In this document: positions 2,875 through 49,604 of the stretch, one piece after another | How positions within the stretch are numbered: position 1 is the stretch's first letter | Layout: every line of letters starts with the position of its first letter | Sequence record: MN445185.1 | From: Escherichia phage vB_EcoM_EC001 | Direction: 5' to 3' (one strand) | Length of the DNA stretch: 64,000 nucleotides | The notes under the pieces: generated by a model | Databases searched by the model: none | Told to the model about the DNA's origin: nothing | What the model saw: only the letters and a program-made list of their open reading frames with translations | Position numbers and translations under genes: made by a program

Positions 2875-3354
2875 ATGAAGTTATTTTTGGTGGCGATACT
2901 GGTGCTATTGTTGACAGGATGCCCTGGGGTCATCCGTCACGTAGACCCAGATTACTCCTCAACCGGAGATTGGCCTTTTCGTCCTTTAGAACACCCACCA
3001 GTATATAACGGTGGGAACAGTCCTGAGGCGAAAAAGCTGGCAGGGAAAATGTTTGTTGCGGATGTGAACGCTTATGCTTATTACGTTTATCTGTACGCTA
3101 AGTCAGTAAACAACTATGCAGAAGCTAAAGGGTGGCACACCCCGATGACCGCACCGCTTTGTGAAGAGTTTATTCGCCCCACTCTTCATGGTATACCCTC
3201 CGGGATATATCTCGACCCTGGTTCTCGTAGCCCTCAAGACATTAGTCGTGATTTGTCACGACAGATTAAGTCTCTCATTCGCAGCTATCGCGAAGACAGA
3301 GAGTCTTTTAATCGTGCCTACGAACGGCACAAAAGTAGTTGCCTTGTGCAATGA
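2875..3354 (+). CDS. lipoprotein (159 aa); possible o-spanin or superinfection-exclusion lipoprotein
   Basis: N-terminus MKLFLVAILVLLLTGC is a signal peptide with lipobox L-T-G-C; GAGGAG SD 8 nt upstream. Confidence 0.6.
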   Translation: MKLFLVAILVLLLTGCPGVIRHVDPDYSSTGDWPFRPLEHPPVYNGGNSPEAKKLAGKMFVADVNAYAYYVYLYAKSVNNYAEAKGWHTPMTAPLCEEFIRPTLHGIPSGIYLDPGSRSPQDISRDLSRQIKSLIRSYREDRESFNRAYERHKSSCLVQ

Positions 3355-31500: not shown

Positions 31501-34500
31501 TTCCACGCAGCCTTACCTAAAAGACCTACTGGTTTTAACACGCCCCATTTCGTGATAGAACCGAGTATATTACCCACAGTTCCCAAGATACTGACGATGG
31601 GACCGATGATAGGTAAGCTTTTCACCATATCCCACAGACCGCCAGATTTCCCTTTGGAGCCCTGCGCTTTCTCTTTCTTCTCCTTACGTTTCTCACGCCA
31701 ACGTTTGAAGAAGTTAAGGTAATCGCGTTTTTCATCACCTTCAGGCGGCTTGTTACGTTTACCGAACTTCGCAAACATGGTGCGAATAATGCCATCGTCA
31801 CCACCTGCACGGGATACTGATTCGCGCATGGTGTTAAACCATGACATCTCTTGCAAGCCAATCATTCGGTCCAAGCGTTCGAATAACCTTGCGCCTGCAG
31901 ACTTGGCGGCATTCTTCCCTTTGTTAATAACCCTCCCTGCTGCATCACGGGCGGTCTCAAGGTCTTCCTTCGCATCGCCGTAGACTTTACGGCCAGAAAG
32001 GCCACCTTTCGCGTTCAAATGGCTGCGATAAAACTCAGCAACATCATCGTCGCGTCCAGCCAACCGACGTTCAACTTCGTAACGTGTAGCAATGTCGTGT
32101 CGTGCTCCACGATATCCATCGAGCATATCCCCAGCCCGGCCTCGGAAACCACTGAACCAACCACGCAGGCGGTCACGTCCACGACCAAAGAACGCTTTTG
32201 TTCTTGACCAACGTCCACCAAAACGTTCAGACAGTGACGCTTTCGCGCGATCATACGCCCCGCGTACTGCACGACCGATCGTACTACCGCCACCCCCGAC
32301 GCCCTTCTCCATTTCCTCTGTCCAACTTTCGTCTTCCGGATCTCCCGGTAAACGTTGGTTCAACAGTTTATAGATACGGATAAGGATGTGGTTGGTTTTC
32401 TTGCCGGTTGATGAGAAGAGACTGAAACCACCGCCCCCACCATCTTTACGGCCTTTCCACCAACGCGTCAGTGGGTTGTCGGTAATCATGTCTTTCAGAC
32501 GATCGACACCACGTTTCGCAAAACCGAGCACTTTACCCGGTAAGCTCGTTACACGGTTGAACGCTTTCTGGAGACGTGTCTTTTCTTCGCCTTCCGGAAT
32601 CTCGTTCAGCCAGTCCTTAATCTTACCAACGATGCTGCCCGCTTTCGGTGACAGGAAATCCAGGAACCTTTTCGGTAGCTTAGCCACCTTATTAAAGCCT
32701 AAGCCAATCTTACTGGCCAGACCTTGGGTCAGTGCTTGGATTTTCCCGCCTTTATAGTAGCGGAGTTTACCCGCAGCGGCTAAGTCAGCGGCTGCTAATA
32801 TCAGATTACCTGCGGAGTCAACAATATCACTCCCCAGCTTGATGTCGTCCAGCGTTTTCAGCTGAACCATTTTACCATCAATGACCTGATAGTATTCTCC
32901 AGCTTCCAGACGTGCACCTTGCAGAACAACATTACCGTGGTCATCGTAAACGTCACGGATACCCAGTAGTCCTTTACCGAAAGAGCTTACCGCTTCAAAG
33001 CCACCACGGACACTACCGCTGATAAGGCCACGCATCCGGGTTAAGAAACCAGGACCTTCTCCGCCACCCATTCCTGCGACTTTACCGCGTGCCCAGCCAC
33101 CGAACTGGTTCAGTTTATTCCAGGCACCCTTAACACCACGTTTCGCAAAGCCACCGATTCCTGCTGCGGTGTCGAACAACACACCACCCCAACGACGAAT
33201 AAGCCCATCTTCACCGATGATAATACGACGGCGTTTACCGCCACCGCTACCACCACCAGGACGAGGTGGTCCCATCTCTTCGTCACCAGAACCAGCACCC
33301 CCTGCTAACGAAGCCAGGAGAACCCCTTCTTCGTCCATACTTCTGACGTGTTCCAGAATTTTCTGGAGGGTGTCACTGTTGTTATTACCCCGAATCGCTT
33401 CGATGATGCCGTCAAAGTTATTCCGTGGCGCTTCTTCGCCGCGGTTACGTTGACTCAACAATTCAACAAAGTTAGTCGAGGTTTCACCGTAGAGAACTGC
33501 GGCTAACTGCCGAGGCGACATTCCGCGGCCTTTACCACCGCCACGTAAAGCCGGCGGCAACGACGTGTCATCGGCACCACCATTTACCCCTTGGTTCATT
33601 CGGCGCAGATAGTCGCCTAACGCCGAACCGTTTTGCAGCTTACGTTGAATCTCCTGCTCACGAGTCAACGCACGACCGCTGCGTGTCTTACCCATTGCCA
33701 AGTCATTAAACAAGGTATAGGGATCGGACAGGTCTTTATCCACGCCGAAAGTGTCACTCTTCGCGTCGTAGTTAAAGATACCCGCATCGCGCAATGCTCG
33801 CTCACCGTAAATATTCACCGCCTCGTCGATAATTGCCTGACGTTGGGTGATAGATGACTGCACTGTGGAGATTTTGCGGGCCAGCTCGTTACTTAATTCG
33901 TTGCTACCGCCGACCAAGCTATCAGAATGCCCCTGTAACGCTTCCTTAATGCGTTCTGCGGCGTTTCCTGGCATATACCGATGAAGATGCATCGGGTCTT
34001 TCAGAATCGCTTCTACGTCGAATGCGCGGCCCTGCGAGGCTCGCGACTCGATATAGTCGGCGAGATGCTGTCGATCCTTCTGCGAGAGCGTTTTGCCGCG
34101 GTCAACAAAATCCACAGTGCTGTTAATGGAATTTTGGAGACGCAGGCGTTGTTCATCGTTTGCAACCGCCTTGCGTACGCGGTTACCGACCACTTTGCGG
34201 TCTACGAAACCACGGCTGGTGATGTCATATTCCAGGTCGGCATGTTCGCCATAGCCACGACGGACAGATTTGTTAATCTCTGCCAGCCAGGCAGGAATAA
34301 CTTCAACCAGGCTAAGATATGCTTTACGGTCAAACTTCGCCGAACGGCTTAACGTTTCGCCATTACGCTCGTCAAGGAAGGCTTTCTCGCGGTTTAGCGG
34401 TTGGACAATACCGAGTTCATTCAATACCCGGAACAAATCCGCCAACGGCCCTTGCGTTTCGCCTGCGATAGCTGAGTTCGAGATAGAGGAAAGATTACCA

Positions 34501-35669
34501 AAGGTGAACGCGCCTTTCTGCAGGCGTTTCATGACCTCTGGATTTTTCTCCATCTCCTCACGAGTCCATTTCTGGAGTTTCTCGATTTGTGGGCCGAGTA
34601 GTTTCTTCGCAAGGAATCCGCTACCCCACGCAGTTGCTTTATCACGAGCATTTGTTTTGCGACGTTCAGCAGTCAACGAAGAGCTGTCGCTCATGCCGAA
34701 ATCGTCTTCAACACCCATGCCGAGAACAGACTCTAACAAACCACGACCTTCGCCAAATATACCAGAAATCTTCTTCTTGGTATTTTCGCGAATCATGTCC
34801 ATAAACCCGTCAGCATAACGCAACGGGTTCATCCATTCCGCAGCCTGGCGTTTAACGTTCGCCCAACGGACTTCTGAGAAATCTTCCTTCGCGTAATCCG
34901 GCAATGCCGTGTTCTTCACGATGGCTTCTAAAGCAGGCGTATTACGATCGAACTCCGACTGCTTCATCTTCACGATGTCTTGGATGGCAAACAGGGTACG
35001 GTATTGCAGTTCGAGTTTCTTACGCTCGATGTTTAAGAATACCCCACGGCTTAACCCGGTTAGCAGGTTAATGTCTTTCGCCATCCCAATCATGGTTTGG
35101 TGCATTGCATCCGCACGCATCTCTTTGATGCTGTCGCGGAGCTTATCCTCTACCATGCGGTCCTGCAGCTGACGTTGTTCATCGGCATCCTTTGGCACAC
35201 CTGAGAATACGTCGCCCAGTTCACGATCCATCAATGCCTGATTCGGATCGTAGTTCTGGTAATCTAACTGGTCAGATTTTGACCACTTGTCGATGCGCTT
35301 AGTAACTGCATCCGGCAAGTATTTCTTCATCGTCGGACCGAGTTGGCGCGCTTGCATCTTCAGCGTGCGCTCGGTCTTCACAAGCTCCCCTTTCGTATGG
35401 GCGTAAATGTCCTTTGCTGCAGCTGCCGCTGACTGATAGCCCTCGTATGCATCAGCTGCCGGCTTAGGCATCCCCTTGAGGATAACTTGGTCGCGTTTCC
35501 CTTCTGGCCAGATAGTTGACAACGCCGACTTCCTGGCAACATTCAGGGTACTGAGTATCGGGCTTCGTTTTTTCTCGTCTTTGGGACGGGGTGGTTCACC
35601 GAAATCATCCCAGTCGTCGAGTCTATCTAAATCGATATCATCGAAACCGTCTTTGCCTCTTTTTGCCAT
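28548..35669 (-). CDS. giant virion protein (2373 aa) with lytic transglycosylase (SLT) domain near the C-terminus, internal TM/Ala-rich segment and Gly-rich tracts
   Basis: Uninterrupted 7.1-kb ORF; SLT signature AMAKAESGFNYTAKNPYASASGLFQFIDGTWDGM encoded around 29280-29680; hydrophobic AVSAVATAASAVVTAVGWPAILIGGAIAAAGYAAY. Confidence 0.85.
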   Translation of the reverse strand: MAKRGKDGFDDIDLDRLDDWDDFGEPPRPKDEKKRSPILSTLNVARKSALSTIWPEGKRDQVILKGMPKPAADAYEGYQSAAAAAKDIYAHTKGELVKTERTLKMQARQLGPTMKKYLPDAVTKRIDKWSKSDQLDYQNYDPNQALMDRELGDVFSGVPKDADEQRQLQDRMVEDKLRDSIKEMRADAMHQTMIGMAKDINLLTGLSRGVFLNIERKKLELQYRTLFAIQDIVKMKQSEFDRNTPALEAIVKNTALPDYAKEDFSEVRWANVKRQAAEWMNPLRYADGFMDMIRENTKKKISGIFGEGRGLLESVLGMGVEDDFGMSDSSSLTAERRKTNARDKATAWGSGFLAKKLLGPQIEKLQKWTREEMEKNPEVMKRLQKGAFTFGNLSSISNSAIAGETQGPLADLFRVLNELGIVQPLNREKAFLDERNGETLSRSAKFDRKAYLSLVEVIPAWLAEINKSVRRGYGEHADLEYDITSRGFVDRKVVGNRVRKAVANDEQRLRLQNSINSTVDFVDRGKTLSQKDRQHLADYIESRASQGRAFDVEAILKDPMHLHRYMPGNAAERIKEALQGHSDSLVGGSNELSNELARKISTVQSSITQRQAIIDEAVNIYGERALRDAGIFNYDAKSDTFGVDKDLSDPYTLFNDLAMGKTRSGRALTREQEIQRKLQNGSALGDYLRRMNQGVNGGADDTSLPPALRGGGKGRGMSPRQLAAVLYGETSTNFVELLSQRNRGEEAPRNNFDGIIEAIRGNNNSDTLQKILEHVRSMDEEGVLLASLAGGAGSGDEEMGPPRPGGGSGGGKRRRIIIGEDGLIRRWGGVLFDTAAGIGGFAKRGVKGAWNKLNQFGGWARGKVAGMGGGEGPGFLTRMRGLISGSVRGGFEAVSSFGKGLLGIRDVYDDHGNVVLQGARLEAGEYYQVIDGKMVQLKTLDDIKLGSDIVDSAGNLILAAADLAAAGKLRYYKGGKIQALTQGLASKIGLGFNKVAKLPKRFLDFLSPKAGSIVGKIKDWLNEIPEGEEKTRLQKAFNRVTSLPGKVLGFAKRGVDRLKDMITDNPLTRWWKGRKDGGGGGFSLFSSTGKKTNHILIRIYKLLNQRLPGDPEDESWTEEMEKGVGGGGSTIGRAVRGAYDRAKASLSERFGGRWSRTKAFFGRGRDRLRGWFSGFRGRAGDMLDGYRGARHDIATRYEVERRLAGRDDDVAEFYRSHLNAKGGLSGRKVYGDAKEDLETARDAAGRVINKGKNAAKSAGARLFERLDRMIGLQEMSWFNTMRESVSRAGGDDGIIRTMFAKFGKRNKPPEGDEKRDYLNFFKRWREKRKEKKEKAQGSKGKSGGLWDMVKSLPIIGPIVSILGTVGNILGSITKWGVLKPVGLLGKAAWNVGKFAVTRLAAPAVSAVATAASAVVTAVGWPAILIGGAIAAAGYAAYRIATTTYTQYLDKMRLAQYGFRDYDKWSSDDGAKARYLEDALREYVSYAEDGQASLRGLSGKDVQKLAEGFGINVEEKGEMLAFQAFMLQRFIPIYLRWITALKSMPNSIQLADVGDAKKVSKEDMLTLFNKMKMTKDAKAFSSLTDPRKVNQGFFSKAWDVVTFTPKEFLSGEEVMEVQNEVERAIKSRMDDKKARKYGMAPAVEGIKSAGVDEAINKLGQLDNERNKNLAKVEGWEDGTEQVQIQVDWNAVLDQKDMNAMESVRWKTYGFTTIDNATRTLITVFEKNVIKDIDVKTASYKGDWKKAIASMVPDAIGTPKEDRLKRWFFDRFLPVFMTYLVGVKRYLPTADPLNLKLTGGYLYEISLMMSTAYSLKGGIRQSVWEVNINPLGGEANTNPSSIKAELETLKLLSKEADLAVRNMIKAIRNNGKRARWKDRNKNRSSLEVTDEDEEDSNISSGDSLSSDGARASGYIPSGTSGGVPGNLGQVVDAVGGVRNYAAMTTGSSSINLSDVKDGDYKSLAEKYPIEMLGRKGALNVPNIKALITDAANMMGVPPAVALAMAKAESGFNYTAKNPYASASGLFQFIDGTWDGMMKGYSRKFGIPRVNQMDPWANAILGVQFIRDNIQQAQRDLGGKAPPPAVAYLYHFLGAGGGKKFLEAWKRNPNMAASSAPGITSAILRGNANVFYSNGRIRSVDGVIQELNRRMGAISANEVAADPSKTKDMVAGLSPNSPTNPAAAMGAPAANDPSLSPADNLPADNANRRDDALTQKGAMAAQDAMATAAGNVGPAAPTPTTGGSGTSDASTTAETVASQAAAEGLSATDVAKVKAGAEAQVNAAARPVAAPTSDATASTPTLNGDPIDVQQLKVLIQSRDYLKEIRDILKSNPRAANDTRGGSIQQAANVAPPGSAARRQEITQPTPSLNVSRKAS

Positions 35670-35698
35670 AATGTTTCTTCCAATTCAGGAGCTTAAAA

Positions 35699-37312
35699 GT
35701 GAGAAAGCTAAACTGGGTTGACTTTTACTTGTTAAACGTCAACAAGTCCCTGGTGTCGCATTTAAAACCAGTTACAACAACAGACACCTTTCAGGGACTG
35801 ACGAAAAACTTTCACCCTGAAGGACTGTATTCAACCGAAATTTTTGGCCTCACAGGGAGCGAAGCACGAGACTCAACGTTCTCGTACATTGATATCAAAC
35901 TGGATATCATTTCGCCGACCGTTTGTTTGGCATTGTTCCAGCTGAAACAGCTGTACGAAGAAATCTGTTCCGGGAAGCGATTCGCTATCTGGAATGAGAA
36001 AGAAAAAGATTTCGAGCCGGCTCTGCCCAGTGATAAAGGTGCAGACACCGGCTTCAACTTCTTCCTACGCTACTACGAACAACTGACGCCAGGACGCAAC
36101 GAATCAATGCGTCGCGACGAGACAGTCGATTTCTTCAATAAGTTCCGTCCGGTCAGTCTCAGCCGCTATGTGCTGGTTCTACCTGCGGGATTACGTGATT
36201 TGGTCATTCGTCAGGATGGCCGCGACCAAGAAGAAGAGATTGGCGGACTCTACCGCCGTCTGATTTCTCTGGCACGTGCAGTCCCCGACCGCAGTACGCG
36301 AACGGAACTGACTGACCCGGTTCGCTGGAAGCTCCAACAAACCTTTAATGACATCTGGATGTACTTCTTCAACATCCAAGACGGTAAAGGTGGTTTTGCG
36401 CGTCGTAAAGTGACGTCACGTAAGTTAATGAACGGTACGCGTAACGTACTGTCTTCATTCTCAACCGGTTCCAAGGTCATGGGTCGCGAAGATGCGATTC
36501 GTCCAACGGATACCCGTATCGGTTTGTACCAAACCCTGAAGGCGTTACTGCCTGTGGCTCAATACCACATCCGTGAACGTTACCTCAGTAACATCCGGGC
36601 AGGGGATGGCAACTTATACGGCGTTAACACCAAAACACTCAAGCGTGAGTTCCTGGAAGTCTCCGGGCGGGTGTATGACCTTTTCACTACCGACGATGGC
36701 ATCGAAACACTCATCAACAGAATGGAAGCGCGCGAGCTTCGACATAAACCGCTGATGATTGATCCGGACCATTACGTGGCATTAATCTACCAAGACAAAC
36801 GCAGCTTCAAAATCTTTTACGATATTGAAGACCTGCCGGAAGGACGTGACCGTAAGCTTGTCCGCGGACTGAGCTTAGCGGAACTCCTCTATTTGTCAGG
36901 TTACGATATTTGGAATGACTACTTCTCGTTCATCACGCGTTATCCGGTTACGGGACGCGGTTCGACTTACTCCTCGACCATAAGATTGGAGACCACCACT
37001 TCTTCCCTCTATTTGCATGAACTGGAAGACGATTGGGTCACGTTAAAAGAGAAGGGTGCAATTAGCTTCCCTGATCGTACCGTGAAAACCTTTGTGGAAT
37101 CCATGGCACCACATCCATCCCGATTAGGTGGATTGGGTGGTGACTACGATGGTGACACCGGCTCAGCAAACTGCCCGATGTCAACCGAAGCGCTCGAGGA
37201 AAATCGGAAGTGGGTCAGTTCGAAAAACTACTGGTTTGCAACAGACGGCAGTTTCAAAATCAATCCGGTTAACAACGTGATTAAAAGAACGACTGCTGCG
37301 CTGTTGAAATGA
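35699..37312 (+). CDS. multisubunit RNA polymerase beta-prime-like subunit, N-terminal catalytic fragment (537 aa)
   Basis: GGDYDGDTGSANCPMSTEALEE aligns residue-for-residue with the beta-prime catalytic loop [22 protein letters not shown] (three Asp, P+12, E+16, A+17, E+20), E. coli sequence from memory; GTG start with SD AGGAGC. Confidence 0.6.
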   Translation: MRKLNWVDFYLLNVNKSLVSHLKPVTTTDTFQGLTKNFHPEGLYSTEIFGLTGSEARDSTFSYIDIKLDIISPTVCLALFQLKQLYEEICSGKRFAIWNEKEKDFEPALPSDKGADTGFNFFLRYYEQLTPGRNESMRRDETVDFFNKFRPVSLSRYVLVLPAGLRDLVIRQDGRDQEEEIGGLYRRLISLARAVPDRSTRTELTDPVRWKLQQTFNDIWMYFFNIQDGKGGFARRKVTSRKLMNGTRNVLSSFSTGSKVMGREDAIRPTDTRIGLYQTLKALLPVAQYHIRERYLSNIRAGDGNLYGVNTKTLKREFLEVSGRVYDLFTTDDGIETLINRMEARELRHKPLMIDPDHYVALIYQDKRSFKIFYDIEDLPEGRDRKLVRGLSLAELLYLSGYDIWNDYFSFITRYPVTGRGSTYSSTIRLETTTSSLYLHELEDDWVTLKEKGAISFPDRTVKTFVESMAPHPSRLGGLGGDYDGDTGSANCPMSTEALEENRKWVSSKNYWFATDGSFKINPVNNVIKRTTAALLK

Positions 37313-37330
37313 TACCCATAAGGCACATGT

Positions 37331-40300
37331 ATGATTTTTCTGAAACAGTTTAACCAGCGCTTTACCGTGCGCAAGACCGATGAGTTCGGTCGTCCGCGTA
37401 TTATCCCGCTGGAGAAGCTCCAGCTCCCACGTGGTTCTATCTACCACACCATCGATTTAGACCAGGTGGTTTTAGCGCCGCCGTTAACCACACCGTGTTT
37501 TGGCCAGCTGGAAAAACCGGCGATGATTCGCCACCACTTCCAGCTGCCTGAAGACGGCATTATTGGCCACCCGCGTAAGAAACCGGTTGTTGGCCAAGAA
37601 CGTCAAATCTTCCAGTACCATCGTAACAACCGTCGTATTCGTCGCATGATTGAAGACGGCGTGGTACGTTCAGATCCGAAAGTGCTGCTCATCGAAAACT
37701 ACACCCCGATGCTGCCGCATTATTTCTACCCTGATACTCTGATGTCCTGGTACGAACGTCTGCACAACATTCAGCTGCTGATAACTAACCAGATGAAAAC
37801 TGACTCACGTGAGTACATGCGTCAGAACTACTACATCATCGAACTGGGTAACGTACTGCCTTCTTTCGATCGTTTTAAAATGACGTATAACGATCGTGTT
37901 AAAACCAAACTGGAGCGCTTTAAGGACTTTAATCTCCTGTGGTTACTGGAACTGTTCGGTTGGGCTTACGGCGATCAGCAAGCAACACTGTTTGACGGCA
38001 TGGACATGAACCAGCTGTCACGTGTGAACTTTATCTTCACGCACAACGGTGGTTTTACATCCATGAACATGGGTGTAATTGAAAGAATGCGTAAGTCTGC
38101 CGGCGGTCGTTTGACTGACGTGCAGATGGGCAGAATGTTCTACCGTACACTGACTACGGTGATGACCACACCGCCGTCTACCGACTACGAAGATGACGAG
38201 TTCGTTACACCGGAAGGGGACGAACGCGTACATCTGGGAGAGGACGACGATGTTGTTGAAGCCGTTGCCAGTAAACCGGAAGAAACCCTCGATATCGTCG
38301 ACGATGAAGCAACACAAAGCGACAACGTTGACGATATATTGAACGATCATGAGTTCGATGAGAAAGAAGATCTGGTCATCGAAGCGCCGAAAGAAGATGT
38401 CAAACCAACCACCATCGTCGTAGAACGCACCATCCCACACGATGCTGTGATTAAACAGGAAGTTGAGCGCCTGGCAGAAGCGGGCCGCGTCACCGCCAAA
38501 GCGTATCAGTTCCTGAACGAATCTTCTAAACGTTTCGTAAACTTACCCAACCCGTACAATCCTAAAGAGACGTACGGCGAAGGTCTGACCATCGATCCGA
38601 AGAAACTCGAAGTTAAAGCCGAGCCTAAGAAGATTGAACGCTTAGTTACGGATGAAGCCTGGGCGGAAAATACCACCGACCAAATCATTCGTCAGTACAA
38701 CCAGGAAATCTTCCCGAAAGATATTCTGGGGGCAGTAGCGTCATCTCAGCGTCTCGGTTTGGCGATTCACAATCACACTGTTGAGAAAGAGATTTCCGTT
38801 ACCGGGAATATCGAACACCACACGTTGCGTATTCAGCCGATTGGCGGAGAACCAACCACGGTACGTTTCTCAATTCCTGCATTAACCGAAGACGGTACTT
38901 GGGTTGCAAATGGTGTGGAATATACAATGCGTCGTCAGCGTGTTGATCTTCCTATCCGTAAAGTGTCCCACGATACTGTAGCGTTAACCACTGCCTACGG
39001 GAAGAACTTTGTCCGTCGCAGTGATAAAGTCGTCAATGATTACGGACGTTGGCTCACTAACGCGATTATTACTCGCGCGGTCGATCCAAAGAACACCGAA
39101 ATCACTGATGCAAAACTGGCGAATGTGTTCGATCCGCTGTCTAAACTGCCGCGTCAATATACCGAAGTGGCGCGTCGTGTAGCAGCGTTCAACGCAATTG
39201 GGTACCAATGGAGCTTTGACATTAAACAGAAAGCGGCATTCTTTAACGAAGGGCAACTGGCAGACGCGGACCGTGTCGAGCTGGTACCTGTGGCGAAGAA
39301 ACCGCGGAGTCATGTCATCGTCGGTATGGATAAAAACTCCCAGCTTTATCGAGTGGATAAGGATAAGACCGAACCACTGGGTACACTCGCCGAGGTCTTT
39401 GGCGTGGACACCTCTAAGGCTCCACGAGAAATGACCGAACTGTCACTGATGGGCAAATCAATCTCGCTGGGCTTTGTGTTTTCGTACTATCTCGGGTTAA
39501 CCGGGATGTTGAAACACTTTGGTATCAGTTACGAGGTTCTCTCTGTCGGACAACGTATCGATAAAGGTCAGTTCGACTCCATCATTCGTCTCCAGGATGC
39601 GAAAATTGCAATTGTCTGCGAGAACGATCAACAGAGGATGATTGTCAACGGCTTAGACCGTTACATCAAACACTTTACCACGTATACCGAGTCGGAAGTT
39701 GACCGGGAAGACATTTATCTGAACCTGTTACGCGATGCAGATGGGCTAACACCACGCTACATCAAAGAGCTGAAACTGATGCGAACCGCATTTGTTGATG
39801 ACATGCACGCGCGTATCCTCAGGAAAATGGGCGAGCCGGAAACCTTTATCGGCTTACTGGAGCGTTCTAACGAACTGCTGCAGACGGACCACACGTTACC
39901 GGAAATTAACGGTGACGAAATGATGTTCATCGGGAACCAACGTATTTCGTATCACATCTACACCGCGATGGTGCGGGCGATGCGTAACTACAACAACGCG
40001 CCTAACTCGAATCGTAAGTTTGAGTTGACGCAGGACATGGTGTGGGGTGCGATTAACTCCGACCCGTCTGTTCTGCTGGCTCCTGGCGCAAACCCGGTAC
40101 AGAACATCAAAGAAAAAGATGTTGTTACCATGGGCGGTACAGGCGGTCGTAACCGCAAAACCATGGTATACAGTACCCGTGAATTCCAACCGAGCGACCT
40201 GGGGATTATCTCCGGTAACACGGTCGATAACGGCGACGTAGGTATCACCGCCTTTGCAACAAACAATCCGCGTTACGACACCGTGGACGGCACGACCTTT

Positions 40301-41536
40301 AAAAAGGACCTCGATAAACTGAAGCCAGGTGAGGCACTGTCATTTATTGATGGCTTGGTGCCGGATACCCTGATGGACGATGCTAAGCGTCAGAACTTCG
40401 TTGGGATTCAATTCGGTTCTGCGACCAGTTGTGTTGGCGCAACCACCACACCGTATCGTACCGAGCAAGAAAAGTTCGTGGCACACCGTACTTCTGTGAA
40501 GCACGCACGCGTAATCGATAAACCAGGCAAGATTGTGGAGGTTCTTAACGACCACGTTAAAATCAAATACGACGACGGAGAGGAAGAAGCTTTCCCACTG
40601 GGCCGTTGGTTCGGTCCACACGAAGGGACTTACTACCCACACACCCTGGTAACGAAATGGAAGCGCGGAGATAAACTCCCTGCCGGTGCCGTTATCACGT
40701 ACAACGAACAACACTTTGAACCAGACATCTACGATCCAACGCAGGTCAGCTTTAAAAACGGGATACTGGCAACTGTCGCTTTGATTGAAGGGGAAGAAGT
40801 AATTGAGGACTCCAACGCCATTAGTGAGCGGTTCGCTGCTAAGGCTGAAGCCGATGTTACCAAACTCAAAGAAGTCACAATGACGTTTACCCAGAACCTG
40901 TTGGAGATGGTAAAAGAAGGGGACCACGTAGACGTGGATTCAATTCTATGCACCTTCACCGACAACCTGACCGGCGATATGAGCGGGTTCAGTAAAGAAG
41001 CAGCGGAAACGCTGCGTGAGTTAAGCTCCTTTGCACCACGCTCTGGTGTTCGTGGGTTTATCGACAAAATCGAAGTGGTTTACCACGGCGAGGTGGAAGA
41101 TATGACCCCGTCTTTGGCGGAGATGGTTCGTAAATACGACCGTATACGTCGGAAGACTGCGCTGGCTCTCAAACGTGACGAGCCGAAGGACGGTCGAGTC
41201 AACGGTGATTTTCGTGTTGAGGGGGTGCCGTTAGCGTACAATAGCCTGTGTGTCCGATTCTACATCACACACCGGGTAGAGATGGCAGCAGCGGATAAGA
41301 TGGTTATTGCTAACCAGCTGAAAACGACGGTTCAGGAAGTGATGTATGGAACCAACAAAACGGAAGACGGGCAGGAACTCGACATTATCTTTGGTCGTGA
41401 TTCCGTCGACGCACGTATCGTGGGTTCTATCATGCGCATCGGAACCACCAACGCTGTCGGGTATCGTGGTGGGGAGAATATCGGACGCATCTTAGATGGT
41501 GAAGACGTCCCAGCCTTGCCGGCTAAAATCAACTAA
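37331..41536 (+). CDS. multisubunit RNA polymerase beta-like subunit (1401 aa), divergent
   Basis: C-terminal AADKMVIANQLKTTVQ..EDGQELDIIFGRDSVDARIVGSIMRIG resembles E. coli beta [39 protein letters not shown] (from memory); adjacent to the beta-prime-like gene. Confidence 0.5.
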   Translation: MIFLKQFNQRFTVRKTDEFGRPRIIPLEKLQLPRGSIYHTIDLDQVVLAPPLTTPCFGQLEKPAMIRHHFQLPEDGIIGHPRKKPVVGQERQIFQYHRNNRRIRRMIEDGVVRSDPKVLLIENYTPMLPHYFYPDTLMSWYERLHNIQLLITNQMKTDSREYMRQNYYIIELGNVLPSFDRFKMTYNDRVKTKLERFKDFNLLWLLELFGWAYGDQQATLFDGMDMNQLSRVNFIFTHNGGFTSMNMGVIERMRKSAGGRLTDVQMGRMFYRTLTTVMTTPPSTDYEDDEFVTPEGDERVHLGEDDDVVEAVASKPEETLDIVDDEATQSDNVDDILNDHEFDEKEDLVIEAPKEDVKPTTIVVERTIPHDAVIKQEVERLAEAGRVTAKAYQFLNESSKRFVNLPNPYNPKETYGEGLTIDPKKLEVKAEPKKIERLVTDEAWAENTTDQIIRQYNQEIFPKDILGAVASSQRLGLAIHNHTVEKEISVTGNIEHHTLRIQPIGGEPTTVRFSIPALTEDGTWVANGVEYTMRRQRVDLPIRKVSHDTVALTTAYGKNFVRRSDKVVNDYGRWLTNAIITRAVDPKNTEITDAKLANVFDPLSKLPRQYTEVARRVAAFNAIGYQWSFDIKQKAAFFNEGQLADADRVELVPVAKKPRSHVIVGMDKNSQLYRVDKDKTEPLGTLAEVFGVDTSKAPREMTELSLMGKSISLGFVFSYYLGLTGMLKHFGISYEVLSVGQRIDKGQFDSIIRLQDAKIAIVCENDQQRMIVNGLDRYIKHFTTYTESEVDREDIYLNLLRDADGLTPRYIKELKLMRTAFVDDMHARILRKMGEPETFIGLLERSNELLQTDHTLPEINGDEMMFIGNQRISYHIYTAMVRAMRNYNNAPNSNRKFELTQDMVWGAINSDPSVLLAPGANPVQNIKEKDVVTMGGTGGRNRKTMVYSTREFQPSDLGIISGNTVDNGDVGITAFATNNPRYDTVDGTTFKKDLDKLKPGEALSFIDGLVPDTLMDDAKRQNFVGIQFGSATSCVGATTTPYRTEQEKFVAHRTSVKHARVIDKPGKIVEVLNDHVKIKYDDGEEEAFPLGRWFGPHEGTYYPHTLVTKWKRGDKLPAGAVITYNEQHFEPDIYDPTQVSFKNGILATVALIEGEEVIEDSNAISERFAAKAEADVTKLKEVTMTFTQNLLEMVKEGDHVDVDSILCTFTDNLTGDMSGFSKEAAETLRELSSFAPRSGVRGFIDKIEVVYHGEVEDMTPSLAEMVRKYDRIRRKTALALKRDEPKDGRVNGDFRVEGVPLAYNSLCVRFYITHRVEMAAADKMVIANQLKTTVQEVMYGTNKTEDGQELDIIFGRDSVDARIVGSIMRIGTTNAVGYRGGENIGRILDGEDVPALPAKIN

Positions 41537-41538
41537 TG

Positions 41539-41562
41539 TAGGGCGGGTCGCTCCCGCCCGGT
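41539..41562 (+). terminator. GC hairpin, possible terminator or RNA stability element
   Basis: GGGCGGG-TCGCTC-CCGCCC hairpin after the 1401-aa gene; weak T-tract. Confidence 0.35.
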
Positions 41563-41583
41563 AAATAAACTCCGGAGTTAATA

Positions 41584-41877
41584 ATGGGAATTTTAGATAC
41601 GCTCAAGCAGCAGCATGGGATTCCGGTGGGCCGTAATAGCACGAATCCGGAAACGGAAGGTTATTCCCCACAGCAACGCATGAACTTTGTTGTTCTGGGC
41701 AATGCGGTTGAATTGGCCACCGAAATTATTCACGGACTGCTGAAGGGCAGCAATGGCCTGTCTGACCGCATGGGCGATCAGCGTTTGCTGAAACGAGACA
41801 TCGCTGATATGGTGGGTGCGCGCATTACTGGTCGCATCCAGGATTCCATCAGCACCAAAAACGGGGGTCAGGCATGA
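41584..41877 (+). CDS. hypothetical protein (97 aa)
   Basis: ORF with SD GGAG upstream; coupled to next gene. Confidence 0.5.
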   Translation: MGILDTLKQQHGIPVGRNSTNPETEGYSPQQRMNFVVLGNAVELATEIIHGLLKGSNGLSDRMGDQRLLKRDIADMVGARITGRIQDSISTKNGGQA

Positions 41878-43349
41878 TCAACTTATATTCACTTAATGCT
41901 GTCACCAACGCAATGAAACTGGCGAAACAACACCAGATTCGTTTGGATGCTGACGTTGACAGTCCTGTTGGTCTACTGACAAAAGCGACTACGCAGCAGA
42001 GCGTTTTCGATACACAGATAACTGACGAAGAGTTCTTCCAGTCTCTGCCGGATATCACTGCACTGAAAACGCCGCAGTCCGGAACAGGCGAAGCGTCTGT
42101 AATCGCAGACACCGCAGCGGGTCCAGAAACGCTGAACGTCGAAGACCACGAACCAACGCTGTTTGAACTGAAGCGTATGGCTATCCAGCGTTGTCAGGGT
42201 ATGCTTGACTTTGCCCGTAACGTTATTCAGCCGTTTGTTCAACTGGTTATCCAAAACAACCAGGGTATTGAAAACCAGGCAGTTAGCGAAGAGTGGGCAC
42301 TCGTACCTGCAGGTATGGACCCGGCGCTGAACTCCCCGGTGGTACAGGCGTTAATTGATTCGGTAGAAAACCCGCTGGGTAATGGTACTACGCATCCCGC
42401 AGTTAAAGCCAACGTCCCTGCCGATATCGAACTGCCAGAAACTGGCAGCAAAGCATACGACGATCTGGTTAAAGAACTGTTGAATGCGCTGGGTTGGAAT
42501 ATCAACGAAGCCGTTCGCAACATGCTCGAAGGGAACATGCTCTCTCCGGTAAGCGACCAGGCACCACACAACCTGAAACGCAACATTCTGTTTATGCTGC
42601 TTTCTGGCTACTACCTGGAAATGCCGTGGAAAGACTCTGGTCTGAATAGCGGGCAGTGGAAAGCACAGATGCTGCCATTGCATTACAGCTATATCGGGTG
42701 GGTTTACGCCTACACCCAGAACATCGTTACCCGCATCAAGACCGGTAACATTGTCTTCGGATACGACAACGTTGAGAAGAAAGTGTATATCTGCCAGGAA
42801 GTTATGGATGACTATCTGGAAAAAGGCGGTAGCGTTGAAGCGTTACTGGGCGCTATTTACCAACTGGACGAAGGTGACACCAATGTCTCCACGCGTGTAG
42901 CTTCACTGTTGGAAAAACAGAAAGACTACATCGCTGCCTGGAGCCACCGTTCCGCGATTCAGCGTGCTAAGCTCGATAGCAATTGGGTAACACGCAATCG
43001 CCAGTCACTGAAACAAGCGTTTAACGTGGCTATCGATGCGACCGATCCTGAACTGTTCTGGCGTGGACAGGACGGTCAGGTAGCAACGCCGGAGTTCGTT
43101 AAGAAATCAACGGCAAGCTTCATCGATTCGTTCTTCACAACCGACACCACAGACATCACTGAGTTCGTTATCAAGGTCTCCGCGACTGAGGTCTTCGGTG
43201 AATACGAACTGTCCAAGCTGATGCTGGATATTCATCGTGGTATGATTGCTAACCGTCAGCCTGACGAGGTGGCGACCGACTGGATGATTAACTACGTCCT
43301 GGATTGGATTTGTGGCGGTGTGGTTATTTCTGTACCGAGCAAAGTTTAA
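41874..43349 (+). CDS. hypothetical protein (491 aa)
   Basis: Long ORF, ATGA overlap with upstream stop. Confidence 0.6.
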   Translation: MINLYSLNAVTNAMKLAKQHQIRLDADVDSPVGLLTKATTQQSVFDTQITDEEFFQSLPDITALKTPQSGTGEASVIADTAAGPETLNVEDHEPTLFELKRMAIQRCQGMLDFARNVIQPFVQLVIQNNQGIENQAVSEEWALVPAGMDPALNSPVVQALIDSVENPLGNGTTHPAVKANVPADIELPETGSKAYDDLVKELLNALGWNINEAVRNMLEGNMLSPVSDQAPHNLKRNILFMLLSGYYLEMPWKDSGLNSGQWKAQMLPLHYSYIGWVYAYTQNIVTRIKTGNIVFGYDNVEKKVYICQEVMDDYLEKGGSVEALLGAIYQLDEGDTNVSTRVASLLEKQKDYIAAWSHRSAIQRAKLDSNWVTRNRQSLKQAFNVAIDATDPELFWRGQDGQVATPEFVKKSTASFIDSFFTTDTTDITEFVIKVSATEVFGEYELSKLMLDIHRGMIANRQPDEVATDWMINYVLDWICGGVVISVPSKV

Positions 43350-43358
43350 TAAAGAGAG

Positions 43359-44087
43359 GTGGTCGTGAGCGCCATTGAAACAGCACGTCGTGACGCGACG
43401 AAAATTCATGCAGATTTAGTGGACCAAGGCACGGCCACCATCACCAAAGGGGGATGTTACATTTACATCCCTGTTGGCTTCGTGGCTAAAGAGCTGGCGG
43501 TAATTTCTTCGCAAGTCGAAATCGTCGGCATTTTCGCTATCTCCACTGACCGCAAAACCTACGGGGTATCGAACGTCACGACGTTCATTGAAATTACCCC
43601 GTCGGCGTTTGAGGAAATTGATGTTCAGGGTGTGCCGTATTACGAGTTCCGTTTTGACCCCGGCACGGTGGTGTTCCCCAACCGAATGCTGCAAGTGCTC
43701 TCCTCGCCAGTCTACAACATCGCTTCGTACATCTACGACTTCGGAAACCGGCCTTTCTGGTACACCGCAGTAGATGACGCTGAGCTATTGTCTGACACTA
43801 AGACGTGGAACGGCTTTACGGTCTTTAACGACCAGATCACCGCTGACTGTTATGCTGCCCACACACAGCGTAAGGTTGGCGACCCGCGGACGTATTTCCG
43901 CTACACCCTGAAAAAAGACAGCGATTTGATGAATCGGGTGCAGTTTATTCCGCTGCGTTCAGGTTCATTGAACAAAACTTCCCGGTTGGCCAAGATTGCA
44001 GATGTGGAACTGAAACAGGGTATCCGTTCTGCACTCCAGGTCGATCCGGTACGTGCAGAGCCACTCGAGGATTTGTATATGAGGTAA
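43359..44087 (+). CDS. hypothetical protein (242 aa)
   Basis: Long ORF. Confidence 0.55.
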   Translation: MVVSAIETARRDATKIHADLVDQGTATITKGGCYIYIPVGFVAKELAVISSQVEIVGIFAISTDRKTYGVSNVTTFIEITPSAFEEIDVQGVPYYEFRFDPGTVVFPNRMLQVLSSPVYNIASYIYDFGNRPFWYTAVDDAELLSDTKTWNGFTVFNDQITADCYAAHTQRKVGDPRTYFRYTLKKDSDLMNRVQFIPLRSGSLNKTSRLAKIADVELKQGIRSALQVDPVRAEPLEDLYMR

Positions 44088-44149
44088 CTGAGGTAGGGTT
44101 ATTGTACGTCCCCAATAACCCGCTTCGGTAATAACAACTGGGGAAACCA

Positions 44150-44953
44150 ATGGAAAACTTGTCACTACGTTATAACTGCGTGGCACTCGCTGGGGTCAAT
44201 AAAGGGGCAACGCTAAAGAAAGATGCGGACGGATATTACTACGTCCTGTTAGGTGCATTGAATATTTTCAACTCTGAGAATATTTACTACGCCTATAACG
44301 AGTCAAAACATGTCTTCGAGCGCTCTAACGTTTTCATGCGTAAAGTTTTAGCGGGGAATCTCTTCGGTGAAGAAGACCATCCGCAATACGAACAAGGCAT
44401 GAGCGAAGCCCAGTGGATCGAACGTAACGAATGGATCGAAACGCGTAACGTGTGTATGCACATTCGCGAAGTAGAAGTGAAGCCGACTGACCAGATGTGT
44501 AACGGTCTGCCGGTGATGGAAATCTGGGGTTGGATTAAACCTAACCGTGAACGTGGTCCGCTTCTGGCGGAAGCACTAGAGAACCCACATCAGAACGTGT
44601 GTTTCTCACTGCGTGCTATCGTTCGTGAAGGTCGTCTGGGTACGACAATCGTACGCCGCATCGATAAACTGGTCACCTTTGACTGGGTTATTGAAGATGG
44701 CCTGCAAATCTGTAACAAATACTCTGCGATTCAACGCGGTAGTAAAGTGGCACAGGAATCTACTCGCACTTACGTCGACCGCCCTATCAGTCGTCAAGTG
44801 TTGGAAGACATCCTGTACAATCCGACAACGACCAGCGCTGTTGCCACTGAGTCCCGTCGTGGCGCTCTCCAGCAACTCGCGCAGGAATACCTGCAGCTGG
44901 CTCCGAAAGTGTCCAATCTGCGGGTAATGGGCATGGGTGTAAGGAGCTGGTAA
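44150..44953 (+). CDS. hypothetical protein (267 aa)
   Basis: Long ORF. Confidence 0.6.
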   Translation: MENLSLRYNCVALAGVNKGATLKKDADGYYYVLLGALNIFNSENIYYAYNESKHVFERSNVFMRKVLAGNLFGEEDHPQYEQGMSEAQWIERNEWIETRNVCMHIREVEVKPTDQMCNGLPVMEIWGWIKPNRERGPLLAEALENPHQNVCFSLRAIVREGRLGTTIVRRIDKLVTFDWVIEDGLQICNKYSAIQRGSKVAQESTRTYVDRPISRQVLEDILYNPTTTSAVATESRRGALQQLAQEYLQLAPKVSNLRVMGMGVRSW

Positions 44954-44956
44954 AAA

Positions 44957-45586
44957 ATGGCAGAACATATCGACCCGTCATTAGAGCGGTGGTGTGAACG
45001 CCAGATGCCGCACGTCGCCAAAAAGTTGACGTTACGTAAACTGACTGAACAGCCGCTGCATTTAAGCAAGTGTAAGATACCGACGTTTTCGCCGCGTATC
45101 CCACTTTCGTGCGCGCCAGATGAAGACAAGACCGTGCCCAGAATTTGCTGCTCGGTAGATTTAGAGCGAGCGATTAAGGGTGCACGTCACAACTTCTCTG
45201 CAATCGAAATACCCACACGATTGTATCTTTACGGTTTTGATGAGCGTGATGTAGCGCAGCCTTCGGTCAACCTGACGCAGGAACCGAATCGGGCGGGTGA
45301 AGTATGGATTGTACCACACCGCATGTCGAACTGGGATATCAAACCGACTTACCTGGGCGAGATGCGGTTGTCAGAACTTCGCAACGGCGGCCATGTTTTT
45401 GTCTATCACTTAAGTTTCGGACAAGATGTGCGCCTGTCTACCAGTCAACTGCTGAAAGCCGGCGAATTTTATCGACTGATTATCAGCGTCAACTGGGAGC
45501 GCGGTGAAGTTAAGGTCTCGGAGGCGGTCGCCACTGCGCGTACTGCTTTTGATAACGCACTGAACGAATACGTCGTTTCACCGTAG
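44957..45586 (+). CDS. hypothetical protein (209 aa)
   Basis: Long ORF immediately after upstream stop. Confidence 0.55.
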   Translation: MAEHIDPSLERWCERQMPHVAKKLTLRKLTEQPLHLSKCKIPTFSPRIPLSCAPDEDKTVPRICCSVDLERAIKGARHNFSAIEIPTRLYLYGFDERDVAQPSVNLTQEPNRAGEVWIVPHRMSNWDIKPTYLGEMRLSELRNGGHVFVYHLSFGQDVRLSTSQLLKAGEFYRLIISVNWERGEVKVSEAVATARTAFDNALNEYVVSP

Positions 45587-45641
45587 TGCTTAGTTCGTGG
45601 TCTGCAAATCACAACTAAAAACCACTACAGTAGGGGGACGC

Positions 45642-45941
45642 ATGAAGGTCGTTAACATCGCAATACCTCCGACCCTTCGTTGTTTGACGCCGGAAGAACT
45701 GAAAGCGTTAGCGATCTACGCTATCCAAGGAAAGGCTGGTAAAGAAGTGCTTGCCGAAATCTTATCGGAACGTTTTGATACAAAACGCAAGATTAATAAC
45801 ATCATCTCCGGAATCGCGTCGCTAGATATCATGGCACTCTATTGCGACATTAAAGAGGCTGGAGTGACAATCGACTATCGCCGTACTTACTTTCTACTCA
45901 CTGAGCCGTATCGTTCGAATATGGCAATAAAGCAGATGTAA
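45642..45941 (+). CDS. hypothetical protein (99 aa)
   Basis: ATG at 45642 with SD AGGGGGA; track ORF from 45597. Confidence 0.45.
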   Translation: MKVVNIAIPPTLRCLTPEELKALAIYAIQGKAGKEVLAEILSERFDTKRKINNIISGIASLDIMALYCDIKEAGVTIDYRRTYFLLTEPYRSNMAIKQM

Positions 45942-45994
45942 TTTTTTACATGACGTTGGTTTCATGTGTTGGGGAACAAAATAAGGACAAGAAG

Positions 45995-46543
45995 ATGTTT
46001 TATCTGGATAGCGATGGCGTTTTTGCACGCTGGCGTAAATACGTTTTATCCACACATTTTCCCGGAATGACGATTAAAGAGTTTAACGCACTACCTGAAC
46101 TCCGTCGCCGTAGTTTGGTTCGTTCGATGTATCAGAACGATCCTGACTTGTTTTACAAACTCGAACCAATTGAGGGTGTAGAGCGAATCCTGGAAACGGT
46201 AGATAGACTTTGCGACAGTTGGGCAATACTCACCTCTGGGTCAGAAGATCACTACGACCACCAATTGGTCGTGGATTCAAAACAACGGTGGTTCATGAAG
46301 CACTTTGGGGTACCAGCTGACAAAGTCATCGTCACCGAAAGTTCAGGGCAGAAGAAAGCTTACGCCTCGCGAGGTAATTTGCTTGTCGACGATTATGGTC
46401 GTAACTGTCGAGAATGGATTTTGCAAGGTGGCGCGGCGATATGGTCGCGAACTGAAGAACCGAACATTGATGGCATTTGCCTCCAGTGTGAAGCGTTCTA
46501 CAATGACCCGATTAGTCACTCGGGGACACTACTGCAAGTCTAA
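45995..46543 (+). CDS. HAD-superfamily phosphatase, likely 5'(3')-deoxyribonucleotidase-type
   Basis: N-terminal FYLDSDGVFA (HAD motif I DxDG), ILTSGS (motif II), LLVDDYGRN (motif IV-like). Confidence 0.5.
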   Translation: MFYLDSDGVFARWRKYVLSTHFPGMTIKEFNALPELRRRSLVRSMYQNDPDLFYKLEPIEGVERILETVDRLCDSWAILTSGSEDHYDHQLVVDSKQRWFMKHFGVPADKVIVTESSGQKKAYASRGNLLVDDYGRNCREWILQGGAAIWSRTEEPNIDGICLQCEAFYNDPISHSGTLLQV

Positions 46544-46553
46544 GCTCCACTAG

Positions 46554-46596
46554 GCTCATCCTATCTTCGGATACGGGTGAGTCTTTTTATTTTATT
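46554..46596 (+). terminator. rho-independent terminator
   Basis: CTCATCCTATC-TTCG-GATACGGGTGAG hairpin (one G-U pair) followed by T-tract. Confidence 0.7.
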
Positions 46597-46606
46597 AATT
46601 GCATTC

Positions 46607-46635
46607 AAAAAGAACTGAGATATATATTACTTAGG
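46607..46635 (+). promoter_or_regulatory. candidate phage promoter, AT-rich motif family A (AAAAAGAACTGAGATATATATTACTTAGG)
   Basis: Intergenic; contains TATATTAC; same architecture as the 14950 site. Confidence 0.45.
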
Positions 46636-46666
46636 TGAGCGTTACACGTTAACGCTTTAATCGACC

Positions 46667-46680
46667 ATTACCCAGAAGGA
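46667..46680 (+). promoter_or_regulatory. conserved 14-mer TTAATCGACCATTA (motif family B)
   Basis: Exact copy 19 nt upstream of ATG 46690 (via SD AGAAGGAG). Confidence 0.45.
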
Positions 46681-46689
46681 GTATTTACA

Positions 46690-47088
46690 ATGACTAACCA
46701 ACTACGCCAAGACCCGTTTGTTGCCATGATGCTTTGTGCTAAAGCCGAGAGCAACGAAGCCGATTTAATTCGTCTGTTGACTGATGACGAATACCTTATC
46801 GCTGAGCGCGATAAACGTTTAAAAGAACTCTACAAGCCAGAAACCGGTGAATCGCTCGACAATCAAGACGCCTGGAAGTTTCTTATTCTCATTGCTGATG
46901 AAAAGTGGCGAGCAGAAAATCCCATCGTCTGTGATATTACAGACCTACCGTACAAATACGGCGGACTCATCACCAGCGACCTGCATCTTAAAGCGTACTT
47001 TGATGGCGAAGCAATACAAGAGCTGCAAGATGTTCTTATTACAGCAACGAACACTTTGAGACGTTTGCGCGCTGAGCAGCTGATCTGA
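46690..47088 (+). CDS. hypothetical protein (132 aa)
   Basis: ORF with strong SD; preceded by the family B motif. Confidence 0.55.
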   Translation: MTNQLRQDPFVAMMLCAKAESNEADLIRLLTDDEYLIAERDKRLKELYKPETGESLDNQDAWKFLILIADEKWRAENPIVCDITDLPYKYGGLITSDLHLKAYFDGEAIQELQDVLITATNTLRRLRAEQLI

Positions 47089-49555: not shown

Positions 49556-49604
49556 AACGTACCTCTCTCCAAATGGAGAGAGGTAACGCTTGTTTTTTTT
49601 TTGT
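49546..49604. terminator. bidirectional rho-independent terminator
   Basis: CCTCTCTCC-AAAT-GGAGAGAGG hairpin with long T-tract and upstream A-tract, between convergent genes. Confidence 0.8.

Follow-up and report, generated by a model that had tools for sequence, protein, structure and literature searches.

The stretch analyzed here is a window of 64,000 nucleotides of Escherichia phage vB_EcoM_EC001 (sequence record MN445185.1), in which positions 41,584 to 45,586 hold five open reading frames (ORFs) of 97, 491, 242, 267, and 209 amino acids (aa), downstream of a pair of RNA polymerase (RNAP) genes. This interval very probably comprises five late genes of an SPN3US-like jumbo phage (Seoulvirus, phiKZ related) that form a block with the two upstream polymerase genes and supply contents of the head, the 242-aa product being the fifth subunit of the RNA polymerase carried in the virion (vRNAP). 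All five ORFs listed by the original prediction, which was made from the sequence alone, lie on the plus strand where it had placed them (Table 1). Its proposal that genes downstream of the polymerase pair encode further polymerase-associated factors holds for exactly one of them, the 242-aa ORF, and not for the 491-aa ORF that it had singled out.

Over its full length of 4,003 bases, the interval is 97.7% identical at the DNA level to SPN3US, a 240-kb phiKZ-related jumbo phage of the genus Seoulvirus, and up to 98.7% identical to other Salmonella phages; its close relatives besides SPN3US are the SPFM and SPLA series, SEGD1, and Lh1B (97.7 to 98.7% identity). The five ORFs map one to one onto SPN3US gp242 to gp246. 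In the SPN3US annotation, the upstream polymerase pair corresponds to gp240 and gp241 (beta-prime-N and beta-N, respectively, in the literature) and a 2,373-aa gene on the opposite strand to gp239. The roles of gp243, gp244, and gp245 have been shown by others in experiments on near-identical phages. The present analysis establishes the gene identities, the conservation of the block, and the absence of an RNAP signal from gp243, and it gives weak support for a fold resemblance between gp244 and the C-terminal half of beta-prime.

The 242-aa product as probable fifth subunit of the virion RNA polymerase

The assignment of the 242-aa product starts from genetics and proteomics of SPN3US. Particles of a gp241 amber mutant lack gp240, gp42, gp218, and gp244 (Thomas et al. 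2016, PMC5105663), and the reciprocal result was obtained by knockout of gp244 or gp218, either of which removes all five vRNAP subunits (Ali et al. 2017, PMC5694885). The mutual packaging dependence of gp244 and the other four subunits has therefore been shown in a phage whose DNA is 97.7% identical to the interval. Thomas et al. also put gp244 forward as the C-terminal piece lacking from beta-prime, while calling their hidden Markov model (HMM) match too weak on its own. gp244 is a head protein of SPN3US with homologues in all vRNAP-encoding jumbo phages, and it is counted among the vRNAP subunits in later reviews and papers.

The 242-aa product shares ∼99% identity with a protein of 240 aa, the nearest homologue in the database, and matches phiKZ gp176 (PHIKZ176) in tblastn with 30% identity over 98% of its length (E value, 7e-25). 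Homology, correspondence to the gp244 locus of SPN3US, a free-standing length of ∼240 aa, and a conserved position together place it in the gp244/gp176 family; SPN3US gp244 and phiKZ gp176 are of the same length, and their genes are likewise flanked by the gp243-like gene and that of the protease. There is no substantive difference from SPN3US gp244, apart from two N-terminal codons added by the mechanical ORF call. Translation probably starts at the GTG at 43365, two codons into the ORF, because a Shine-Dalgarno sequence (AGAGAGG) lies at 43353 to 43359; the resulting 240 aa agree with the SPN3US annotation and with the typical length in the family. An exhaustive profile search collected 771 representatives of the family, the best 150 of which are 234 to 267 aa long and are therefore separate, free-standing proteins. 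By single-sequence tblastn, the family is present in 214 jumbo-phage records.

A very confident AlphaFold2 (AF2) model of gp244 (predicted local distance difference test [pLDDT], 95.4; predicted template modeling score [pTM], 0.89) consists of a beta-rich N-terminal domain (about residues 20 to 106) and a helical C-terminal domain (residues 116 to 241). When the model was used for a fold search, largest subunits of RNAP took 15 of the top 28 places, phiKZ gp74 among them, and no second-largest subunit appeared in these 28. Wherever the largest subunit is split, the matches listed were C-terminal pieces and never the N-terminal piece. The highest query-normalized TM-score in the Foldseek list belonged to Thermus thermophilus beta-prime, at a level below significance. 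Besides SPN3US gp244, the known systems closest to the product include the C-terminal part of the RNAP largest subunit, as found in bacterial beta-prime, archaeal Rpo1C/A'', and the non-virion beta-prime-C chains of AR9 and phiKZ. The fold search weakly supports reading the 242-aa ORF as a beta-prime C-terminal piece, and we infer that gp244 might occupy the jaw/region-H position of the enzyme.

Several results weigh against this assignment, or against the wider reading of the five genes. The Foldseek search with the gp244 model returned nothing at an E value of ≤0.001. In hhalign, the gp244 family and the non-virion beta-prime-C family (an alignment of 30 members) gave an E value of 0.34, so that the profile comparison proposed as a check in the original prediction was not significant; truncated templates gave 0.11 to 0.15, and E. 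coli beta-prime gave 0.3, with the match placed in the wrong region. At a useful significance, hhalign did not reproduce the HMM link to beta-prime that had been published for gp244. A Pfam RNAP domain was detected in none of 148 family members, and searches of PDB sequences with the family profile yielded no RNAP match. A 2020 review stated that purification of a vRNAP had not been achieved by then, and our literature search found no vRNAP structure. The PHROGs matched by the 97-aa and 209-aa products (PHROG 8223 and PHROG 5043) are both annotated as being of unknown function. Two other candidate relationships of gp244 were discarded: a match to a helicase loader (8v9t; E value, 0.0025), obtained with a shallow profile, was gone with a deep one, and the pentatricopeptide-repeat matches of the deep profile were weak (E values, 0.014 to 0.022), with no single matched stretch passing on its own.

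Could the 242-aa protein be not a beta-prime fragment but a head protein, such as a packaging adaptor, whose loss would indirectly bar the polymerase from the prohead? The negative profile comparisons leave room for such a protein, which we consider unlikely. The dependence is reciprocal, as gp244 disappears in turn when gp241 or gp218 is lost; the size of gp244 fits the sole region of beta-prime that is otherwise missing; and the family occurs in vRNAP-encoding jumbo phages. Taken as the fifth vRNAP subunit, the 242-aa product would form the C-terminal end of beta-prime, with the beta-rich domain followed by the helical region. It would have to assemble with gp240, gp42, gp241, and gp218 before any of the five is packaged, and the complete vRNAP would be packed into the head, injected with the DNA, and used to transcribe the early genes.

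The 491-aa head protein and the bridge-helix motif

The 491-aa product is 98% identical to its homologue in SEGD1, matches Escherichia phage vB_EcoM_EC001 with an identity that rounds to 100%, and has a weak, collinear BLASTP match to phiKZ gp177 (E value, 6e-4 over 180 residues). Together with a conserved position, occupied by a gene for ∼480 to 520 aa in five distant phages, this homology assigns it to the family of SPN3US gp243 and phiKZ gp177, whose genes lie at the same place (the DNA here being 97.7% identical to that of SPN3US). The two known members differ in that SPN3US gp243 is left uncleaved by the protease, whereas phiKZ gp177 is cleaved. A gp243 amber mutant showed that the protein is essential and is needed for loading the major ejection proteins gp53 and gp54 into the prohead (Ali et al. 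2017, PMC5694885), and in phiKZ, gp177 is an injected protein that has interaction partners among the inner-body proteins. The proteins missing from SPN3US particles without any virion polymerase do not include gp243, and the literature indicates that its packaging is independent of the polymerase. The AF2 model of the 491-aa product (pLDDT, 78) is mostly helical. By analogy with these relatives, the product would be a helical internal head protein required to load the two most abundant ejection proteins, and heads would fall apart without it.

The original prediction had pointed to a segment of this protein resembling the beta-prime bridge helix. The peptide, HNLKRNILFMLLSGYYL, does exist, and the resemblance is due to chance. 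With E. coli rpoC as the beta-prime reference, in which the bridge-helix sequence SGYLTRRL was located at residue 793, alignment in the SGY register gave 6 identities in 35 positions and a BLOSUM62 sum of −16, and the best match of the peptide anywhere in E. coli beta-prime fell at residues 1346 to 1352, away from the bridge helix. Of the E. coli motif GARKG...SGYLTRRL, only SGY is common to the 491-aa protein, and this tripeptide turns up 23 times when the window is translated in six frames. Across 20 homologues with identities down to 47%, it varied (SGY, SGF, ASY, SAY, TAY, SSF, and SSY), its G was not conserved, and no TRRL-like stretch followed it. A second stretch, residues 62 to 70 (TALKTPQSG), gave the best local match to a bridge-helix sequence (P of about 0.05 before correction for seven proteins); it lies in a low-confidence, poorly conserved part of the protein and was likewise set aside as chance.

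Profile and fold comparisons of the gp243 family gave no RNAP signal either. No RNAP was among the PDB sequences matched by the family profile; hhalign returned E values of 0.24 against E. coli beta-prime, at residues 298 to 319 and not at the bridge helix, and 0.26 against the non-virion beta-prime-C family, in an unrelated region; and a Foldseek search of the 491-aa model against the PDB gave 0 matches at an E value of ≤0.001. We give almost no weight to the idea of a diverged beta-prime bridge helix in this protein, which would then be a part or an accessory factor of the polymerase. The idea could draw on the SGY followed by hydrophobic residues within a predicted helix (H230-249) and on the gene being flanked on both sides by vRNAP subunit genes in all phages examined. 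The low-scoring alignment, the variable G and missing TRRL in the family, and the insignificant profile and fold searches contradict it. So do the published HMM mapping, which covers all conserved regions of beta-prime except the C-terminal one, filled by gp244, and the fact that gp243 was not listed among the virion proteins that particles without the vRNAP reportedly lack. Bridge-helix homology was accordingly rejected as a chance SGY in a nonconserved context, and gp243 is not an RNAP homologue.

The prohead protease, two further proteins, and a conserved gene block

The 267-aa product matches the Pfam family Peptidase_S80 (PF20034) with an E value of 1e-84 and 283.7 bits, against a cutoff of 23.4, its residues 8 to 242 aligning with model positions 1 to 228 of 229. 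The autocleavage motifs AQE-203, ATE-234, and AQE-246 stand at the published positions in its translation, and cleavage at E203 has been shown for SPN3US gp245. Because of the Peptidase_S80 match and the motifs at E203, E234, and E246, the product is identified from its sequence as the prohead protease of MEROPS/Pfam family S80. Nearly the full model of this phiKZ gp175-type peptidase is matched, and no difference from it was noted. The enzyme would cleave head proteins behind the glutamate of A-x-E motifs and trim its own C terminus.

The 97-aa product, the homologue of gp242, which was detected as a 10.5-kDa protein in purified virions (2023 SPN3US proteomics paper), has weak homology to phiKZ gp177.1 (E value, 1e-4) and no match in the PDB or Pfam. 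Its positional counterparts in pVa-21, Desertfox, RsoM3USA, and PCH45 (64 to 90 aa) have a core of ∼55 residues in common. In all six lineages examined, a small ORF of 64 to 97 aa lies directly upstream of the ∼490-aa gene. The overlap of the two is 4 nucleotides (nt) in the window as well as in Desertfox and 11 nt in PCH45, and there are short gaps in pVa-21, RsoM3USA, and phiKZ. This arrangement suggests translational coupling and a protein pair. Always located between vRNAP subunit genes and abutting or overlapping, the two genes might encode a conserved pair of proteins connecting the virion polymerase with the ejection machinery or working with the polymerase after injection, a scenario that we regard as very improbable. 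In one form of it, the pair could, by analogy with gp68 of the non-virion enzyme, serve the virion enzyme as a factor for initiation or promoter specificity.

The 209-aa product had no Pfam or PDB fold match. Homologues of gp246 are pVa-21 gp172 (E value, 1e-11), encoded after the protease, and Desertfox gp170 (5e-6) and a PCH45 ORF (9e-6), both encoded between the beta-prime-C gene and the protease, so that phage lineages differ in whether gp246 precedes or follows the protease gene. The members of the family have a motif in common, LH(I/L)S...F.PR(I/V)......ED.(T/S)VPRI(C/S), seen at 44957 to 45586 of the window and at three phage loci (9523 to 10215, 8708 to 9409, and 8659 to 9375). The idea that gp246 is a protease paralogue was rejected; the published diverged paralogue of the protease is gp117.

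The order beta-prime-N, beta-N, small ORF, ∼490-aa gene, ∼240-aa gene, and protease is kept in phiKZ (gp180, gp178, gp177.1, gp177, gp176, and gp175), Vibrio phage pVa-21, Erwinia phage Desertfox, Ralstonia phage RsoM3USA, and Serratia phage PCH45. Besides the 214 records with gp244, the same single-sequence tblastn searches found gp240 in 324 phage records, gp246 in 77, and gp243 and gp242 in 73 each, differences that largely mirror the divergence rate of each protein. It is possible, though in our view doubtful, that the block is simply a co-transcribed late operon of unrelated head components, in which the conserved order is without functional meaning for the polymerase. The block does mix a protease, an ejection-protein loader, and polymerase pieces. 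It tolerates insertions (gp179 in phiKZ, a transglycosylase in Desertfox, and an extra ORF in Erwinia phage pEa_SNUABM_29), and the genes for the other two vRNAP subunits, gp42 and gp218, lie elsewhere in the genome. On the other hand, the order is retained among phages whose gp244-family proteins are only 25 to 36% identical to that of the window, and the small ORF abuts or overlaps the ∼490-aa gene throughout. In a PHROG scan of eight larger ORFs of the window, the vRNAP beta-C gene (gp218) was not found.

Intergenic hairpins and features of the window

The five ORFs are tightly packed, with a 4-nt overlap between gp242 and gp243 followed by gaps of 9 to 15, 62, and 3 nt, the last between gp245 and gp246. 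Upstream of them, the original prediction had noted a weak hairpin. The hairpin is real, but it is not weak: its core of seven G:C pairs and a 5-nt loop has a folding energy of about −16 kcal/mol and is not followed by a U-tract. A comparison of eight phages from five genera showed no variation in the loop TCGCT or the inner GGG/CCC, compensatory changes at five of the nine pairs of the stem, and 94.4% of cells paired. The covariation score was 0.54, compared with 0.175 in shuffled alignments (0 of 500 reached 0.54) and at most 0.14 in slid controls. The sequence of the stem-loop is unique in the window, and on its 3' side lies an invariant palindrome, AACTCCGGAGTT (41568 to 41579), which contains the Shine-Dalgarno sequence of the next gene.

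A second hairpin, between the 242-aa and protease genes, is conserved among close relatives only, being identical in SPN3US and absent from Asesino. Where the window has this hairpin, Erwinia phage pEa_SNUABM_29 has the extra ORF, of 89 aa (2911 to 3180), between the homologues of gp244 and gp245. The intergenic spacers of the window hold about 15 strong perfect-stem hairpins (7 to 12 bp), several with CTTCGG-type loops, at positions 280, 3360, 7390, 9103, 10100, 19221, 24255, 25661, 28523, 41541, 49560, 57672, 60088, 63235, and 63702. Roughly 10 comparable hairpins lie inside genes, though genes occupy far more sequence. Judged by sequence and location, the intergenic hairpins are likely transcript-end or stability elements of the phage. 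Because the next hairpin after 41559 is at 49560 to 49585, gp242 to gp254 may form one unit. An Rfam scan of positions 35000 to 47000 found nothing, and a scan with sigma-70 promoter and terminator consensus sequences, which are not relevant to a phage using its own polymerases, was not above chance.

Table 1. Coordinates of the genes and sequence elements discussed
Feature	Position	Strand	Basis or remark
vRNAP beta-prime N-terminal subunit, 537 aa, SPN3US gp240 homologue	35699..37312	+	PHROG 2986, E 3.6e-238; SPN3US annotation
vRNAP beta N-terminal subunit, 1401 aa, SPN3US gp241 homologue	37331..41536	+	PHROG 3148, E 0; SPN3US annotation
Conserved intergenic stem-loop after beta-N gene	41539..41561	+	Core GGGCGGG-TCGCT-CCCGCCC at 41541-41559
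97-aa small protein, SPN3US gp242 homologue	41584..41877	+	PHROG 8223, E 1e-49
491-aa helical head protein, SPN3US gp243/phiKZ gp177 family	41874..43349	+	PHROG 3841, E 1.2e-176
Motif of the original prediction, HNLKRNILFMLLSGYYL, residues 232-248 of 491-aa product	42567..42617	+	Predicted helix H230-249 of gp243 family
Probable vRNAP fifth subunit, putative beta-prime C-terminal piece, 240 aa	43365..44087	+	PHROG 2926, E 1.3e-94; mechanical ORF 43359-44087, 242 aa
Second intergenic hairpin	44096..44121	+	GGGTTATTG, 8-nt loop, CAATAACCC
Predicted prohead (head maturation) protease S80, 267 aa, SPN3US gp245/phiKZ gp175	44150..44953	+	Pfam PF20034; PHROG 3014, E 6.1e-109
209-aa protein, SPN3US gp246 homologue	44957..45586	+	PHROG 5043, E 1.1e-88

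Two observations concern the surroundings and the database records. The 2,373-aa protein (28548 to 35669, minus strand), encoded divergently from the polymerase pair, is called a tail fibre in the SPN3US GenBank record and the tail tape measure protein in the 2023 SPN3US proteomics paper, and in Vibrio phage pVa-21 the protein at the corresponding position carries the annotation of a lytic transglycosylase. Some SPFM records (e.g., LR535907, LR535913, and LR535908) match the interval in several short pieces of lower identity and with odd predicted protein lengths, which looks like the product of frameshift-ridden assemblies and not like biology.

The identity of the interval is thereby settled, and its polymerase-associated gene is the 242-aa one and not the 491-aa one. 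Everything important in it is already published for SPN3US and phiKZ. To this knowledge, the comparison adds in a small way a strictly conserved gene order, which includes two unexplained small or medium-sized proteins, and a stem-loop, supported by covariation, that separates the beta-N gene from the remainder of the block. The high-confidence model of gp244, the smallest vRNAP subunit, and its fold matches lend modest independent support to an assignment that had been based on genetics, proteomics, and a marginal HMM match.

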